22,748 nucleotides of DNA, taken from a virus (lineage: Duplodnaviria; Heunggongvirae; Uroviricota; Caudoviricetes). A program made the translations under genes and the position numbers. This document shows positions 5,324 through 22,541 of the stretch, one piece after another (position 1 is the first letter of the stretch; every line of letters begins with the position of its first letter). The notes under the pieces are model-generated. The model did no database searches and was not told the origin of the DNA. It worked only from the letters and a program-made list of their open reading frames with translations. Location: the IMG/VR virus record IMGVR_UViG_2671180674_000012, positions 1 to 22,748 of that record. One strand, 5' to 3'.

Positions 5324-5959
5324 TTACCCTTTAAACCAGTCAATCCAGAGCGGATAGTGTTCAGCATAAATATAGCTATACACATCCAGGTTGTATTTGC
5401 GGTCTGTCCTTAGCAGGTCGCAAATACAGGCCGCAGCTTCCAGGGCAGCAGCTTTGTTGCTGAATAACCATGTAGCAACATTCCGGCGATTATCTGTATC
5501 CCACTCTTTTGTGAGGGCTGACACCACGAAGGAGCCGTTGGTGTTGCCATCAAATACTTCCGTTTCCAGATTTTTAAGTAATGCCTGGTGAATTTTTGCC
5601 AGGTATTCAGTCGGAATTTCGCCACGAATTCGGATAAGTTTGTCATAAACAAACATGTTCCCCGCATATGGCGATTTTTCTTTCTTTTGTTCACTGGCAG
5701 GCTGGTCAATTTCGTCTTCGGTTGGTTTCGTATTGATGTTTTGCACTGTCGTTTCTGCAATTTTCTTTGCCACACTCTCTGAGTCGTGTTTATTTACAGG
5801 CGCACAGGAATACAGTCCGACAAACGCATCTCGCACATTTCGAGCCATATTATCAGTGTCTTTTTTCGTTACCGATTCCAATGCAAGTTCGTTCAGACGT
5901 TGACGTAGTGTGTGTACTGCAATCTCCTGGATTGATAGCGATAAATCTTTAAATTCCAT
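5324..5959 (-). CDS. Hypothetical early-left protein (211 aa)
   Basis: ATG at 5959 with GAGGT RBS, 11 nt downstream of the preceding gene's stop (operon arrangement). No family recognised. Confidence 0.55.
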   Translation of the reverse strand: MEFKDLSLSIQEIAVHTLRQRLNELALESVTKKDTDNMARNVRDAFVGLYSCAPVNKHDSESVAKKIAETTVQNINTKPTEDEIDQPASEQKKEKSPYAGNMFVYDKLIRIRGEIPTEYLAKIHQALLKNLETEVFDGNTNGSFVVSALTKEWDTDNRRNVATWLFSNKAAALEAAACICDLLRTDRKYNLDVYSYIYAEHYPLWIDWFKG

Positions 5960-16184: not shown

Positions 16185-16559
16185 ATGGGGATAGAATTTG
16201 TTTTGCCTTACCCGCCGACGGTAAACACCTACTGGCGACGCCGTGGCAGCACATATTTTATATCGGAAGCCGGTAAGCGTTATCGCCGTGATGTGGCACT
16301 TATAGTTCGCCAGCAGAGGCTGAAATTAAACCTGTCCGGAAGGCTGGCGATAACGGTTATTGCCGAGCCTCCGGATAAGCGCCGTCGTGATCTGGACAAT
16401 ATCCTGAAAGCGCCACTGGATGCACTGACACATGCGGGGTTGCTCATAGACGATGAGCAGTTTGATGAAATCAATATTGTGCGCGGTCAGCTCGTTCCTG
16501 GTGGGCGGCTGGGCGTGAAGATTTACGAAATAATGCATGACGGGCAGGTCCAAAAATGA
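16185..16559 (+). CDS. rusA: RusA-family Holliday junction resolvase
   Basis: LPYPPTVNTYWRRRG...PPDKRRRDLDNILKAPLDALTHAGLLIDDEQ matches the RusA signature; AGAGG RBS. Confidence 0.85.
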   Translation: MGIEFVLPYPPTVNTYWRRRGSTYFISEAGKRYRRDVALIVRQQRLKLNLSGRLAITVIAEPPDKRRRDLDNILKAPLDALTHAGLLIDDEQFDEINIVRGQLVPGGRLGVKIYEIMHDGQVQK

Positions 16560-17377
16560 AACTGGAAGATTTACCGAAATACTATTCCCCAAAATCGCCA
16601 GGCCTGACTGATGTATCCGCCTCGACGTCAAAAGATGCACTGAGTATCACTGATGTGATGGCTGCGCAGGGGATGACACAGAACCGGGCTGAGATGGGAT
16701 TTTCTGCGTTCCTGGGGAAAATGGGTATTAGTATGAATGACAGGGTGCGGGCAACAGAATTACTGACAGATTATGCATTAAGTCAGTGCGATCGTGTGGC
16801 GGCGTTAAGGAAACTTCCGGCAGAAATAAAACCGGCAGTGATGCGTATTATGGCTTCGTATGCTTTTGAGGATTATGCCCGCAGCGCAGCGAGTAAAAAG
16901 CAGTGCCCTTGTTGCCATGGGGAAAAATTTATTGAAAGCGAAGTTTTTACAAACAAGGTTCAGTATCCGGATGGTAAGCCGCCAGTATGGGCAAAGTGTA
17001 CAAAAGGCGTGTATCCGTCTTACTGGGAAGAATGGAAAAAAATCCGGGAGGTGGTGAAAGTTTCCTGTCCTGAATGTAAAGGGAAGGGGGAGATCTCCAC
17101 TGCCTGTAAAGACTGCCGTGGGCGTGGTGTTGCCATTCATCGTGAAGAGTCAGAAAAACGGGGTATGCCTGTTATCAGGGGCTGCCGGCGTTGTGGCGGT
17201 CGTGGCTATGAAAGACTGCCATCAACGGAGGCATTTAATGCCATATGCAAAGTGACGAGTGCTATCACGCTTGATACATGGAAAAAATCAGTGAAACGCT
17301 TTTACGATACGTTGGTGGTTCGGTTTGACATTGAAGAGGCATGGGCGGAGCGGCAGTTAAAGATGGTAACGCGATAG
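16556..17377 (+). CDS. Putative late antiterminator (Q-like) with four CxxCxGxG zinc-finger repeats
   Basis: ATGA overlap with rusA; CPCCHGEKF, CPECKGKG, CKDCRGRG, CRRCGGRG; positioned directly upstream of a promoter/terminator pair. Identity as Q is inferred from position. Confidence 0.55.
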   Translation: MKLEDLPKYYSPKSPGLTDVSASTSKDALSITDVMAAQGMTQNRAEMGFSAFLGKMGISMNDRVRATELLTDYALSQCDRVAALRKLPAEIKPAVMRIMASYAFEDYARSAASKKQCPCCHGEKFIESEVFTNKVQYPDGKPPVWAKCTKGVYPSYWEEWKKIREVVKVSCPECKGKGEISTACKDCRGRGVAIHREESEKRGMPVIRGCRRCGGRGYERLPSTEAFNAICKVTSAITLDTWKKSVKRFYDTLVVRFDIEEAWAERQLKMVTR

Positions 17378-18829: not shown

Positions 18830-19876
18830 ATGATTAATACTGTAAAAATATCCAGTTGTGAGTTAATCAACGCTGATTGCCTGGAATTTATCCAGACCTT
18901 ACCGGAAAACTCTGTCGATCTGATAGTCACAGACCCGCCATACTTTAAAGTGAAGCCCGAGGGCTGGGATAACCAGTGGAAGGGCGACGCTGATTACCTG
19001 CAATGGCTGGACCAGTGTCTTGCGCAGTTTTGGCGGGTATTAAAACCCGCCGGAAGTCTTTACCTGTTCTGTGGTCATCGCCTGGCATCTGACACCGAAC
19101 TCATGATGCGTGAACGTTTTAATGTGCTGAACCACATTATCTGGGCGAAGCCGTCCGGACGCTGGAATGGGTGCAACAAGGAAAGCCTGCGGGCGTATTT
19201 CCCGGCAACAGAGCGCATTCTGTTTGCCGAACATTATCAGGGGCCATACCAGCCCAAAAGTGACGGTTATGCAGCAAAGGGGCGCGAGCTTAAGCAGCAT
19301 GTCATGGCCCCGCTGATTTCTTACTTTCGTGATGCGCGCGAATCACTGGGGATAACGTCAAAACAGATAGCAGAAGCCACCGGAAAGAAAAACATGGCTT
19401 CGCACTGGTTTGGTACCAGTCAGTGGCAGTTACCGAATGAGGCCGATTACAGTAAACTGCAGGCGCTGTTTGCACGTGTGGCGGCAGAAAAACACCAGCG
19501 CGGTGAACTGGAGCAGCCACACCACCAGCTGGTCAGCACATACAGCGAACTGAACCGGCAATATGCCAGCCTGCTGGAGGAATACAAATCACTGCGGCGT
19601 TATTTTTCCGTATCGGCTGTCGTTCCTTATACGGATGTCTGGACGCACAAGCCCGTGCAGTATTATCCGGGTAAGCATCCCTGTGAAAAACCGGCGGATA
19701 TGTTGCGTCAGATAATTACTGCCAGCAGCCGTCCAGGCGATTTGGTCGCAGATTTTTTTATGGGGTCGGGGTCGACAATAAAAGCGGCACTGTCGCTGGG
19801 ACGCAGGGCGATTGGCGTGGAACTGGAAGAGGAACGTTTTAATCAGACGGTCAGAGAAATAACGAAAGATTTTTAA
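18830..19876 (+). CDS. DNA methyltransferase, N6-adenine/N4-cytosine type, beta-class motif order
   Basis: DPPY catalytic motif near the N-terminus (LIVTDPPYF) and AdoMet motif FFMGSGST near the C-terminus; 348 aa. Confidence 0.85.
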   Translation: MINTVKISSCELINADCLEFIQTLPENSVDLIVTDPPYFKVKPEGWDNQWKGDADYLQWLDQCLAQFWRVLKPAGSLYLFCGHRLASDTELMMRERFNVLNHIIWAKPSGRWNGCNKESLRAYFPATERILFAEHYQGPYQPKSDGYAAKGRELKQHVMAPLISYFRDARESLGITSKQIAEATGKKNMASHWFGTSQWQLPNEADYSKLQALFARVAAEKHQRGELEQPHHQLVSTYSELNRQYASLLEEYKSLRRYFSVSAVVPYTDVWTHKPVQYYPGKHPCEKPADMLRQIITASSRPGDLVADFFMGSGSTIKAALSLGRRAIGVELEEERFNQTVREITKDF

Positions 19877-20008: not shown

Positions 20009-20433
20009 GTTCACAGGGTGTTAATACCACCGGAAAGGTCAGTGCTGACTTCCTGGTGATCAGTTTGTTGATTCAGTAATAACCGGTCAGCAGTGTGATT
20101 CCGGAAGTCAGCATTTTATGTGTGAGGGTAATTTCTGCTACCCGCACTGGTAAACAAATGAGGCATATCGTTTCAGCACTGGCGAGTTTCGCGGAGAACA
20201 GGTTTTGCAAGCGCCTTTGTCGTTCTTCATTCTGTAATATCTGACTGATTACAGTTTCGGTGCTGTTTTTTACATTGTTAACGTTGTGTATCATCGGATG
20301 GTTTTTATCAGAATGAGTCGCTGCCTGTTTCGGGGTCTGTGATTCGTCAGAATTACGTTGCAGGCTGACGAATCATTCTGGTAGTAACCATACAATTAAA
20401 CGCTGTCTAATTCTTATACGATGAATGCTTTGG

Positions 20434-20459
20434 GCCCGTCTCATGACGGGCATTTTTTT
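20434..20459 (+). terminator. Rho-independent terminator closing the repeat-rich noncoding segment
   Basis: GCCCGTC-TCAT-GACGGGC followed by ATTTTTTT. Confidence 0.5.
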
Positions 20460-20556
20460 ATCCGTGCGCAATGCCTGTTCTGTTATGGCATTTTTCATCT
20501 TTTCCCGGTTGGCTATTATTATGTTTTATTTTTCTGTATACAGGAGAATTGAGACT

Positions 20557-21048
20557 GTGATCACATATGCAGACATTCGGGCAAAGCAGGCTGAAATTCA
20601 GGAGGCCAGACAGGAGTACATCCAGCGACTGCGGGATATGGCAAAAAGGCTGGTCAAGACCTATGAAGACTCACTGGCATTGCCGAAACCACGATGGCTG
20701 GATATTGAGGGTAACTCCCATCCCTATGTTTATCTTTCTCATGATAGTTGTTGTGAGAAACCGGAGGATTTGCAGGTAGATTTTCAGGATGGGGTTACTT
20801 TTAATTTATATACGGTTGTTGATGATGATCCCCGCCAGTCTGTAAGTGTGAATATTACAGTGAGTATTCTGTTACTTGATGGCGACAACATGACGATTTC
20901 GGTTGATGGTTATCAGGCCAGGACATTTTCGCATGTGGATACCAACGCAAAAATTAATGAAGTGTGCGAATACATTAAAGACAGCATACTTATGTCAATG
21001 AATGAAGTGACGTTTGGCAAAAAATCCCTTTCAGAAGTGAAAGGGTAA
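20557..21048 (+). CDS. Hypothetical protein (163 aa)
   Basis: GTG start with AGGAG 10 nt upstream (the ORF-track start at 20425 lies inside the terminator and has a hydrophobic junk-like N-terminus); followed by its own terminator. Confidence 0.5.
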   Translation: MITYADIRAKQAEIQEARQEYIQRLRDMAKRLVKTYEDSLALPKPRWLDIEGNSHPYVYLSHDSCCEKPEDLQVDFQDGVTFNLYTVVDDDPRQSVSVNITVSILLLDGDNMTISVDGYQARTFSHVDTNAKINEVCEYIKDSILMSMNEVTFGKKSLSEVKG

Positions 21049-21083
21049 ACCAGCTGACACTCCGCTGATTCAGAAAATTATCA

Positions 21084-21108
21084 GGCTGCGCACGTGCGTG
21101 GCCTTTTT
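21084..21108 (+). terminator. Putative terminator after the 163-aa gene
   Basis: Imperfect stem GGCTGCG/CGTGGCC around the palindrome CGCACGTGCG, followed by TTTTT. Confidence 0.4.
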
Positions 21109-21245
21109 CATATCTGCGCCACGCCCGGCGCACATCAAAAAACCACAGAGCCTTTCAGGGGGGAGCTTACGGGATGGTCAGTGTGACTTTCTCTGTGGGC
21201 TGCTCATCCCGGGGCGAGGCTCACCCACTAAAAGGAAAAGTCACG

Positions 21246-21671
21246 ATGTTTGGTATTTTCAAAAAGAAAACCCGTAAGGCTATTACTGAAGTGAAGAAAA
21301 TGGAGAACCGCGACGCGGTGGAGGCGACCGTCTGGGGCGCGTATTCCATTGCATACGCTGACGACACCTGTGACGCGAAAGAAATTGCGGTACTGGAGAA
21401 AACCATTGCAGCACTTCCTGCCTTTGCGCCGTTCTCCGGTGAGATTGCCCAGATGAGCGCGAATATCCGCGCCCGTTATGAAGCATCGCCGCGTTCTGCC
21501 AATGCTGAAGCCCTCCGTCAACTGGCTGATGTCGCCGGTACTGATGATGCCGTTAATGTGCTGTGCCTGTGTCTGGATATCGCAGACCAGGATGGCATTG
21601 GTCCGGATGAAGAAGCACAGCTCAAGAAAATTGCTCAGGCGCTGCAGTTACCGCTGGAGCAGTACCTGTGA
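21246..21671 (+). CDS. TerB-like (tellurite-resistance TerB family) protein
   Basis: 141-aa product with AAGGA RBS; helical, acidic composition and motifs (EIAVLEKTIAALP, VNVLCLCLDIADQDGIGPDEEAQLKKIAQAL) resemble the TerB fold from memory. Confidence 0.6.
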   Translation: MFGIFKKKTRKAITEVKKMENRDAVEATVWGAYSIAYADDTCDAKEIAVLEKTIAALPAFAPFSGEIAQMSANIRARYEASPRSANAEALRQLADVAGTDDAVNVLCLCLDIADQDGIGPDEEAQLKKIAQALQLPLEQYL

Positions 21672-21826
21672 AAAGCGCACGCCTTGCGCTGGCTGCCGTC
21701 CTGCTGTTTCTGGTAGTGGCGGTGGATTTCACCGGACGGCTGATGTCGGTACTGGCTGATGGTGTACTGGTGGCGATGGCGCTGGTCGTGCTCCGGCCTT
21801 TATTCCGGAACAAAAACAACAGCTGA
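21668..21826 (+). CDS. 52-aa hydrophobic peptide, start overlapping the TerB-like stop
   Basis: GTG at 21668 overlaps TGA at 21669-21671; product VKSARLALAAVLLFLVVAVDFTGRLMSVLADGVLVAMALVVLRPLFRNKNNS has two hydrophobic segments. Absent from the ORF track because it is under 60 aa. Confidence 0.35.
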   Translation: MKSARLALAAVLLFLVVAVDFTGRLMSVLADGVLVAMALVVLRPLFRNKNNS

Positions 21827-21834
21827 TTATTTGA

Positions 21835-21862
21835 GCGGGCATTGAAAGCCCGCTGCATTTTT
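21835..21862 (+). terminator. Terminator between convergent genes
   Basis: GCGGGC-ATTGAAA-GCCCGC followed by TGCATTTTTA; overlaps the stop codon of the minus-strand DUF4145 gene. Confidence 0.45.
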
Positions 21863-22541
21863 ATTGCTGCTGTTCCTTAATGCGTTCCGGTAGCACAAAT
21901 GCCACTTCAAGGAACAGGCGGAGAAACGCCACAAACTCTTTTGCCTGTTCACCACTGGCCTCGAGCTCGTGCACAGCCTCATTGCCTTCCATACGGATTC
22001 GGTGAGCCCAGTTTCTCATTGATTCCGTCAGTATGCCGTCCTGCCGTGCCAGTTCAATGCGTGACAGCAGATTGCCTTTTTCGTACCCCAGGGCACGGAG
22101 GGCAACCTCGAGGACGCTACGGCAGCCAACAATGATACGCGGGGCGGTTCTGCCGGACCGAACATCCTCCTGCAACTCGGTGAAGACTGCGCGAATTTTT
22201 TCGGGATAGTGGGGGGAGTCATCGGGCAGCCTGAGTTCAGGATAGATTTTGATGCTTCCCTCAAGTGGAGCATTCAGCACCCAGGCTTTGTTGTTGATGG
22301 CTTTTTTCATGTCCACCAGTTCACTGACTGAACATTCGAATGCGATCATTAATGGGTTGTTACATTCTGTGCAAAAGTCTGTTGAGTATGCTTTTGCTGA
22401 TGTTATTTCAGAGGTGCGCGGCTGTTGCACGTAAAGCTTGTTTTCTGTAGCCGGGCGCCTGCTGTGGTACTGGGTGACCTCATTCAGAGAAATATGAACC
22501 TGATGAAGGCAGTACGGGCATCTAATTTTCAGGGAGTACAT
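21861..22541 (-). CDS. Zinc-ribbon plus DUF4145-domain protein
   Basis: ATG at 22541 with AAGAGG upstream; N-terminus MYSLKIRCPYC...CTECNNP; C-terminus matches my recollection of DUF4145 (RSVLEVALRALG...NWAHRIRMEGNEAVHE...FVLPERI). The ORF-track extension to 22730 lacks an RBS. Confidence 0.6.
   Translation of the reverse strand: MYSLKIRCPYCLHQVHISLNEVTQYHSRRPATENKLYVQQPRTSEITSAKAYSTDFCTECNNPLMIAFECSVSELVDMKKAINNKAWVLNAPLEGSIKIYPELRLPDDSPHYPEKIRAVFTELQEDVRSGRTAPRIIVGCRSVLEVALRALGYEKGNLLSRIELARQDGILTESMRNWAHRIRMEGNEAVHELEASGEQAKEFVAFLRLFLEVAFVLPERIKEQQQ

Follow-up and report, generated by a model that had tools for sequence, protein, structure and literature searches.

Positions 21,246 to 21,826 of a 22,748-nucleotide (nt) stretch of caudoviricete DNA (IMG/VR record IMGVR_UViG_2671180674_000012, positions 1 to 22,748; "the window" below means this whole stretch) encode a TerB-family protein and, overlapping its stop codon, a small hydrophobic peptide. 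These two genes are almost certainly tciA and tciB, a phage accessory cassette that was first named in the annotation of the phage P1 genome. Both are real genes under purifying selection that are nearly always adjacent and translationally coupled, and the window carrying them is a lambdoid prophage. The overall explanation that we consider best, and hold with slightly more belief than doubt, is that the cassette supplies a TerB protein together with a coupled inner-membrane peptide for the benefit of the phage during its lytic phase. An earlier sequence-only reading had described a compact pair of a TerB-like gene and a small hydrophobic peptide, with a GTG start overlapping the TGA stop and a terminator on either side. 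The coordinates bear this out, the two hairpins with T runs included (Table 1), so that the observation itself is confirmed while the interpretation attached to it is partly supported.

The peptide was also said to be unannotated, which is wrong. The 52-amino-acid (aa) TciB of the window (MKSARLALAAVLLFLVVAVDFTGRLMSVLADGVLVAMALVVLRPLFRNKNNS) matches the Pfam family DUF3927 (PF13064) with 51.9 bits (cut-off 25) over residues 4–49 of 52 and PHROG 1470, [quoted passage not shown], with 86.5 bits. An identical 52-aa protein is present in RefSeq on 183 contigs under the NCBI label "DUF3927 family protein", and in E. coli C5 both genes are annotated by the Prokaryotic Genome Annotation Pipeline (PGAP), with an identical overlap of 4 nt. 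Both DNA and protein searches led to the tciA-tciB(-tciC) genes of P1 (NC_005856, positions 70233–70929), whose TciA is 85% identical to that of the window and whose TciB, at 44% identity, belongs to the same Pfam and PHROG families. As the pair is already named and catalogued, its novelty is low and the peptide is not to be reported as a new gene. The TciB family is small and narrow: a set of 1.84 billion proteins contains 92 representatives at 50% identity, nearly all of them stand-alone peptides of 45–65 aa.

An open reading frame (ORF) of at least 50 codons that overlaps or abuts the stop of a long ORF is common by chance, being found at 15 of the 57 long ORFs of the window. The tciB ORF by itself is therefore weak evidence, and the gene status of tciB rests on conservation and family matches. 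A wide TciA alignment contains no conserved stretch of 7–10 residues, and loci were gathered through closer TciA sub-alignments. The presence of TciB in these loci was scored by hidden Markov model (HMM) searches instead of tblastn, which with TciB as query on the phage collection returned 16 records, none of them among the close relatives known from the DNA search; masking of the hydrophobic query by the low-complexity filter is the suspected cause of this poor recovery. A TciB-type ORF directly follows tciA in 112 of 118 TciA-selected loci, at an offset of −8 to +3 nt from the tciA stop, and the GTGA overlap is exact in 98 of these 112. Of the six loci lacking TciB, four hold distant homologues, one stops at a contig end and one has a deletion joint. 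Conversely, TciA lies directly 5′ in 79 of 80 TciB-selected loci, the lone exception ending at a contig edge, and it is present in all 10 genomic places found via two common TciB variants. Conservation of the overlap across homologues, which had been proposed as a check on the pair, thus holds in both directions, mostly as GTGA. Even where TciA shares only 41% identity with that of the window, in the JLK-2012 clade, GTGA is kept in 70 of 74 assessable loci. Together, these counts define a near-obligate coupling of the two genes. At the deletion joint, which lies in a prophage remnant (locus L084, around positions 5423–5480), tciB is cut after about 17 codons and joined to an unrelated reading frame, so that the cassette evidently decays by deletion.

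The pattern of substitution agrees with two functional genes. The ratio of nonsynonymous to synonymous polymorphism (pN/pS) is 0.095 for TciA and 0.48 for TciB in its own frame, compared with 0.70 and 1.19 in the other two frames. Residues D20, S27, D31-G32 and P44 of TciB are conserved, and the motif LLFLVV.VDFT...S.LADG...WP..K is kept at 20–58% identity across unrelated phage families. The putative Shine-Dalgarno (SD) sequence of tciB, located within the final tciA codons, has a GGAG or GGAA counterpart at the same site in P1, in the JLK-2012 clade and in the N4-like phage FSL SP-058; no counterpart was found at this position in the N4-like phage FSL SP-076.

TciA exceeds the Pfam threshold for TerB (PF05099; 29 bits, cut-off 24.4) with only residues 11–57 aligned, and matches PHROG 632 ("tellurite resistance") with 215.7 bits. 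A profile built from 13 TciA homologues aligns over nearly its full length with Klebsiella pneumoniae TerB (2JXU; E = 1.7e-19; profile positions 13–142 against chain residues 19–149). The AlphaFold2 (AF2) model is all-alpha with six helices (predicted local distance difference test, pLDDT, 86.7; predicted template modelling score, pTM, 0.82), and its top Foldseek match in the PDB is 2H5N (PG1108; probability 1.00, template modelling score about 0.55), which the TciA profile also matches, weakly, by sequence. The duplicated TerB motif "ADG...E...L" is kept, its acidic "DG...E" being a putative ligand or metal site, and D39-G40, E46, G117 and E122 vary little or not at all among the 13 homologues, which share 28–88% identity. 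Sequence score, all-alpha fold and acidic motifs each place TciA in the TerB family, and judged by the profile comparison it is a complete TerB homologue, more than a TerB-like protein. The 141-aa protein is predicted to be cytoplasmic. Its first 20 residues form a basic tail, predicted to be disordered, ahead of the six-helix domain, and this tail carries a conserved basic motif, MFG(I/F)FKKK, which in the window reads MFGIFKKK and is both basic and hydrophobic. TciA thus resembles the TerB of terZABCDE operons in near-full-length homology, all-helical fold and duplicated motif, but differs in its surroundings: tciA has no terC, terD, terE, terZ or terA neighbours, its partner is a 52-aa peptide instead of the multi-pass TerC, and its setting is a phage instead of a plasmid or genomic island.

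The hydrophobic peptide had been described as having two membrane segments. Hydropathy agrees, with hydrophobic residues 6–19 and 25–42 separated by D20-F-T-G-R24 and flanked by basic ends, whereas the AF2 monomer model gives one continuous helix over residues 2–49 (pLDDT 88.7). TciB may accordingly form either a hairpin or a long kinked helix.

The coupled pair is common to temperate lambdoid phages, P1-like and SSU5-like phage-plasmids, and virulent N4-like and jumbo phages, the groups concerned including virulent Schitoviridae, Lietduovirus, Nickievirus and Erwinia jumbo phages. Virulent carriers are Salmonella phages FSL SP-058 and SP-076 (N4-like), Pantoea phage LIET2 and Pseudomonas phage ZY21, and Erwinia jumbo phage Asesino has the coupled pair as well. 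In ZY21 the 62-aa TciB-type peptide coupled to the TerB-like gene is unannotated (locus L024, 986–1174). Distant TciA homologues without TciB mostly still have a membrane-protein neighbour. In Pseudomonas phages AF and Zuri an unrelated single-transmembrane (TM) protein of 67–73 aa occupies the TciB position; in AF it is an unannotated 73-aa ORF (locus L019, 2432–2653) that has a GTGA overlap and a homologue in Zuri gp47. Among virulent Schitoviridae, Vibrio phage BUCT194 encodes TerB, TerC/Alx and a TciA-like protein in a row without TciB (locus L020, 424–2426). Sinorhizobium phage phiM5 is the only distant homologue in which no partner of any kind was seen.

The P1 and window copies share a tight stop/start coupling, with an overlap of 1 nt in P1 and 4 nt in the window. 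They differ in what follows tciB, which is a third small ORF, tciC, and then a tRNA gene in P1 but directly a terminator in the window; in their setting, since the P1 copy lies 3′ of the C1-operated ban promoters and the window copy in a lambdoid late operon; and in the conserved 135-nt leader described below, which the P1 copy lacks. No tciC was found in the window: past the tciB stop, no small ORF is listed and the terminator hairpin begins after 8 nt. Only the P1 lineage has tciC, and a pair without it still counts as the cassette.

The only element of the locus for which we found no prior description is the RNA between the upstream terminator and the tciA start codon. Its nucleotide identity of 84–99% over more than 60 distinct lambdoid loci exceeds the conservation of the coding genes. 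It is still 85% identical in the JLK-2012 clade, despite the 41% identity of TciA there, and it can be recognised 5′ of the tciA homologue in Erwinia jumbo phages. We considered and rejected a longer, 165-aa TciA beginning within this leader at the in-frame ATG 21174, because this codon is not conserved (it is absent in one relative) and ATG 21246 is preceded by AAGGA; for the same lack of conservation we regard the leader as non-coding. A pattern search of viral contigs with a leader motif of 16 specified bases (AGAGCCTTTCNGGGGTG) gave 114 assessable matches, 97 of which were automatically scored as followed by tciA. On reading, the 17 unscored matches resolved into 11 with tciA (variant start or disrupted), two chance occurrences in coding sequence and four truncated remnants. 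An Rfam search of the leader returned no match at E ≤ 5.

Covariation was assessed in 21 non-redundant sequences and points to two structures. The first is a 15-pair helix, GCCUUUC.GGGGUGAGC with GCUCACCC...AAAGG, that would pair an anti-SD to the tciA ribosome-binding site. It is 97.8% paired, with compensatory AU/UA changes in a 10:10 ratio at one pair and a change from AU to GC in three sequences at another, and a nested inner helix covaries too. The second, an alternative helix, is 96.4% paired and shows double compensatory changes in two jumbo-phage sequences. For both structures, the observed covariation score was reached by none of 500 shuffles, and sliding the partner strand by 1–3 columns gave far lower scores. 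This covariation is supportive, not conclusive, because the structures were built from the very sequences that score them, and these are related to one another. On geometric grounds, a compact pseudoknot that would hold both helices was discarded, as no linker separates their 5′ strands; the two helices are therefore probably alternative folds. For the window leader, the calculated energy of the SD-sequestered fold is −50.6 kcal/mol, against −51.0 for the minimum free energy, and the alternative helix costs about 11 kcal/mol. Behaviour as an RNA thermometer was not supported in silico, mean SD accessibility being 0.60 at 25°C and 0.58 at 45°C. The leader resembles SD-sequestering leaders such as thermometers and translational riboswitches in its CCUUU/AAAGG pairing and its mutually exclusive alternative helix, and differs from them in having no Rfam family. 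We propose it as a candidate for a new translational riboregulator of tciA.

Table 1. Window coordinates of the tciA-tciB cassette, its signals and two upstream late-region genes
Feature	Position	Strand	Details
Late-gene antiterminator Q	16556–17377	+	Pfam PF03589 "Antitermination protein Q", E = 1e-49
DNA methylase	18830–19876		Between Q and the PHROG 5091 ORF
Upstream intrinsic-terminator-like hairpin	21083–21109	+	9-bp stem 21083–21104 with 6 GC pairs, then TTTTT; directly 5′ of the leader
Conserved structured tciA leader	21110–21245	+	135 nt between upstream terminator and ATG
Leader hairpin	21115–21132	+	
Alternative leader helix	21143–21150 with 21191–21198	+	Mutually exclusive with the SD-pairing fold
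Anti-SD CCUUU	21151–21155	+	Proposed partner of the SD region AAAGG 21231–21235
tciA ribosome-binding site AAGGA	21232–21236	+	
tciA	21246–21671	+	141 codons; ATG 21246, stop TGA 21669–21671; assigned by reading of the sequence
tciB Shine-Dalgarno GGAG	21656–21659	+	Within the final tciA codons, 8 nt 5′ of the GTG
tciB	21668–21826	+	52 codons; GTG 21668–21670, stop TGA 21824–21826; shares GTGA with the tciA stop
Downstream intrinsic-terminator-like hairpin	21834–21863	+	7-bp stem 21834–21854 with 6 GC pairs, then GCATTTTTAT

Terminators were called by a consensus scan for a hairpin followed by a T run and compared with shuffled sequence; the region contains nine such sites, against 3.0 ± 1.7 in shuffles. 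In relatives, the position of the upstream terminator is likewise taken by a hairpin with a T run, of different sequence. Between this terminator and the tciA ATG, a consensus scan found no sigma-70-like promoter. Lying behind a terminator and without a detected promoter, the cassette would depend for its transcription on Q-antiterminated late transcription, and Q is presumed to drive transcription through it.

The gene order of the window is integrase, RecE-type exonuclease, DUF968, RusA, Q, methylase, PHROG 5091 protein, tciAB, DUF4145 and a 68-aa ORF. In the closest complete relative, the E. coli C5 prophage beside ompW, holin and endolysin genes come after, and other E. coli prophages have the order Q, methylase or AraC-like gene, tRNA genes, tciAB and holin. 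The E. coli prophage loci with tciAB involve four different Q families and two unrelated holin families. We take this position to be the standard accessory-gene slot, the site of stx in Stx phages. Phages of the JLK-2012 type have a DUF1737 (yjhS) gene after tciAB. tRNA genes often lie just 5′ of tciAB (Asn/Thr in P1, Asn/Thr/Gly in JLK-2012, several in phage Asesino, and Met(CAT)/Arg(TCT) or Met/Lys/Thr/Gly/Val in E. coli prophages); none was found in the window.

Two neighbours in the window require comment. The 207-aa ORF on the plus strand at 20425–21048 aligns with PHROG 5091 from residue 45 and contains a terminator-like hairpin at 20434–20451 inside its 5′ end, so that its real start is probably further downstream. 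As a third member of the cassette it was rejected, since only 15 of the roughly 390 loci fetched have a homologue of it 5′ of tciA, which makes it a facultative neighbour. The DUF4145 gene on the minus strand (21861–22349, perhaps reaching 22541) is convergent with tciB and stands between tciAB and the expected lysis cassette. It scores 45 bits against Pfam and weakly matches the single-gene defence system PD-T7-4 (PADLOC E = 0.0011, 16.4 bits). Its true start is uncertain because PHROG 1305 aligns from residue 63 of the 289-aa ORF, which has an N-terminal CxxC...CxxC.

How might such a pair work? Coupled translation would deliver TciA and TciB together, TciB would insert into the inner membrane, and there it may act as the partner that holds TciA, via its basic tail, at the cytoplasmic face. 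TciA and TciB would then be a small counterpart, in two pieces, of TerB and TerC in ter operons. The two hydrophobic stretches and basic ends of TciB, the basic disordered tail of TciA and the other membrane neighbours of TciA homologues (the single-TM proteins of AF and Zuri, TerC/Alx in BUCT194) all speak for this arrangement. TerB has moreover been reported to be membrane-associated and to interact with the membrane protein TerC (PMC11003894). We consider this membrane partnership about evenly balanced between true and false.

The distribution of the pair and its place in operons suggest that the complex acts during lytic development and to the advantage of the phage: strictly virulent phages carry it, the P1 copy is located 3′ of the ban promoters, and the lambdoid copies are located between Q or tRNA genes and the holin gene without a detected promoter of their own. 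What that advantage could be is suggested by ter operons, whose phenotypes include phage inhibition and resistance to pore-forming colicins, and by Iyer et al (2021), who proposed that phage Ter genes serve in competition with superinfecting phages (PMC7824862). Our best guess on these grounds is a conditioning of the membrane, either as superinfection exclusion or to keep the membrane potential until programmed lysis. Superinfecting phages, pore-forming colicins or an early loss of potential may thus be what the complex guards the inner membrane from; it would not be a suicide effector. This more specific proposal of membrane protection or exclusion is tentative, and we would sooner expect it to fail than to hold. 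Short inner-membrane proteins of superinfection exclusion such as T4 Imm, which the phage makes during infection and which change the membrane in its favour, offer a functional analogy to TciB only, as they have no sequence or family relation to it and are not paired with a TerB domain.

Several observations weigh against a membrane-bound complex with a lytic-phase role. The promoter result comes from a simple consensus scan, and genes in such a prophage slot can still be expressed in lysogens. In P1, CRISPR interference (CRISPRi) found tciA and tciB dispensable for plaque formation (PMC10695390), and tciABC has been lost from roughly half of one P1 subgroup (PMC9603915), which indicates that any benefit is conditional. 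In the AF2 monomer model TciB is one long helix instead of a hairpin. Our searches found neither direct evidence for a TciA-TciB interaction nor, in the literature, a functional study of tciA, tciB or DUF3927. The few longer TerB-DUF3927 "fusions", such as the 196-aa P0052, were rejected as evidence of interaction since they look like frameshift or assembly chimeras; a MAFFT alignment around P0052 placed the TciB sequences at its N-terminus, and the pseudo-complex approach was dropped. Finally, the TerB domains of Bunzi, Shango and Dionysus act in host defence, which keeps a defence role alive.

Such a role had been the original suggestion for this locus: a prophage-encoded abortive-infection or defence pair, in which TciA senses infection or a perturbed membrane and TciB, as the membrane effector, kills or arrests the lysogen. 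Its premise that TerB proteins recur in phage defence is correct. TerB domains occur in the three validated systems just named, "membrane surveillance" has been proposed for those of anti-phage systems, and in the DinA/DinB/DinC system Dionysus the TerB protein DinB works with a membrane pore-former, DinC; ter operons are associated with phage inhibition, and the cassette occupies a prophage accessory-gene slot next to a DUF4145 gene with weak similarity to PD-T7-4. Bunzi, Shango and Dionysus thus resemble tciAB in combining a TerB-like protein with membrane components. They are, however, host chromosomal defence genes, whereas tciAB is phage-borne, and some of its carriers are strictly virulent and never form a lysogen that could be protected; this distribution disfavours a suicide mechanism. 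The expression signals fit it poorly as well, with the P1 copy behind the C1-operated ban promoters and the lambdoid copy behind a terminator with no detected promoter and its ribosome-binding site predicted to be sequestered. Neither TciA nor TciB matched a PADLOC model at E ≤ 1, and the helicase and ATPase of Shango, the BnzB of Bunzi and, compared by described architecture, the DinA (MAEBL domain and TM) and four-TM DinC pore-former of Dionysus are absent from the window. We therefore regard a sensor with an abortive-infection effector as improbable, while a broader role against competitors, such as superinfection exclusion, is compatible with these findings.

Still less probable is lysogenic conversion by a minimal ter operon that would give the host resistance to tellurite, metals, oxidative stress or colicins. 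In its favour are the full-length homology of TciA to TerB, the association of ter clusters with tolerance to tellurite, colicins and oxidative stress, and the P1 annotation, which assigns the function of tciA and tciB by homology only and suggests the same. Yet terC, terD and terE are absent from the window and from all related loci examined, no other Ter genes stood beside tciAB in the related prophage loci, and the neighbours are instead the methylase, the PHROG 5091 protein and the DUF4145 protein; no construct smaller than terBCDEF is cited as giving resistance. That the pair occurs in virulent phages and within a late operon speaks against a function expressed in the lysogen, and P1-like plasmids often lose the cassette.

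We give equally little credence to a lysis-timing module, in which TciA and TciB would modulate the holin, in the manner of an antiholin or by buffering the membrane potential, and so prevent early lysis. TciB is a small membrane peptide, and the cassette lies immediately 5′ of the holin gene in 10 of 10 E. coli prophage places, which involve at least two unrelated holin families. Against this, the copies of P1, N4-like, jumbo and JLK-2012-type phages are not beside lysis genes, the DUF4145 gene and another ORF intervene in the window, and the position is also just the usual accessory-gene slot. Inhibition of cell division, as the historic P1 name has it, retains a small probability. That tciB is a spurious frame beside a single functional, TerB-like gene, as the frequency of overlapping ORFs and the only moderately low pN/pS of TciB might suggest, is effectively refuted by the Pfam and PHROG matches, the motif kept in distant phages, the co-occurrence in both directions and the frame-specific substitution pattern.

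The pair of the window is hence an ordinary, already catalogued phage accessory cassette, and its remaining interest lies in the TerB family, in its use by virulent phages and in its leader RNA. TerB domains are widespread among ter operons, phages and several anti-phage systems that were validated recently, and tciA-tciB is their smallest natural context: one soluble domain and one 52-aa membrane peptide in obligate coupling. The presence of the pair in virulent phages shows that TerB proteins serve phage and host alike in their conflict. As a speculation that we think rather unlikely to hold in full, tciAB and its leader could constitute an RNA-gated membrane-conditioning module for the lytic growth of very different phages (temperate, phage-plasmid, virulent and jumbo), with TciB as a minimal membrane receptor for TerB and the leader as a translational riboregulator of a new class, which has two mutually exclusive folds backed by covariation and possibly senses a signal linked to TerB function. 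If true, this module would be the simplest handle on the function of TerB domains.

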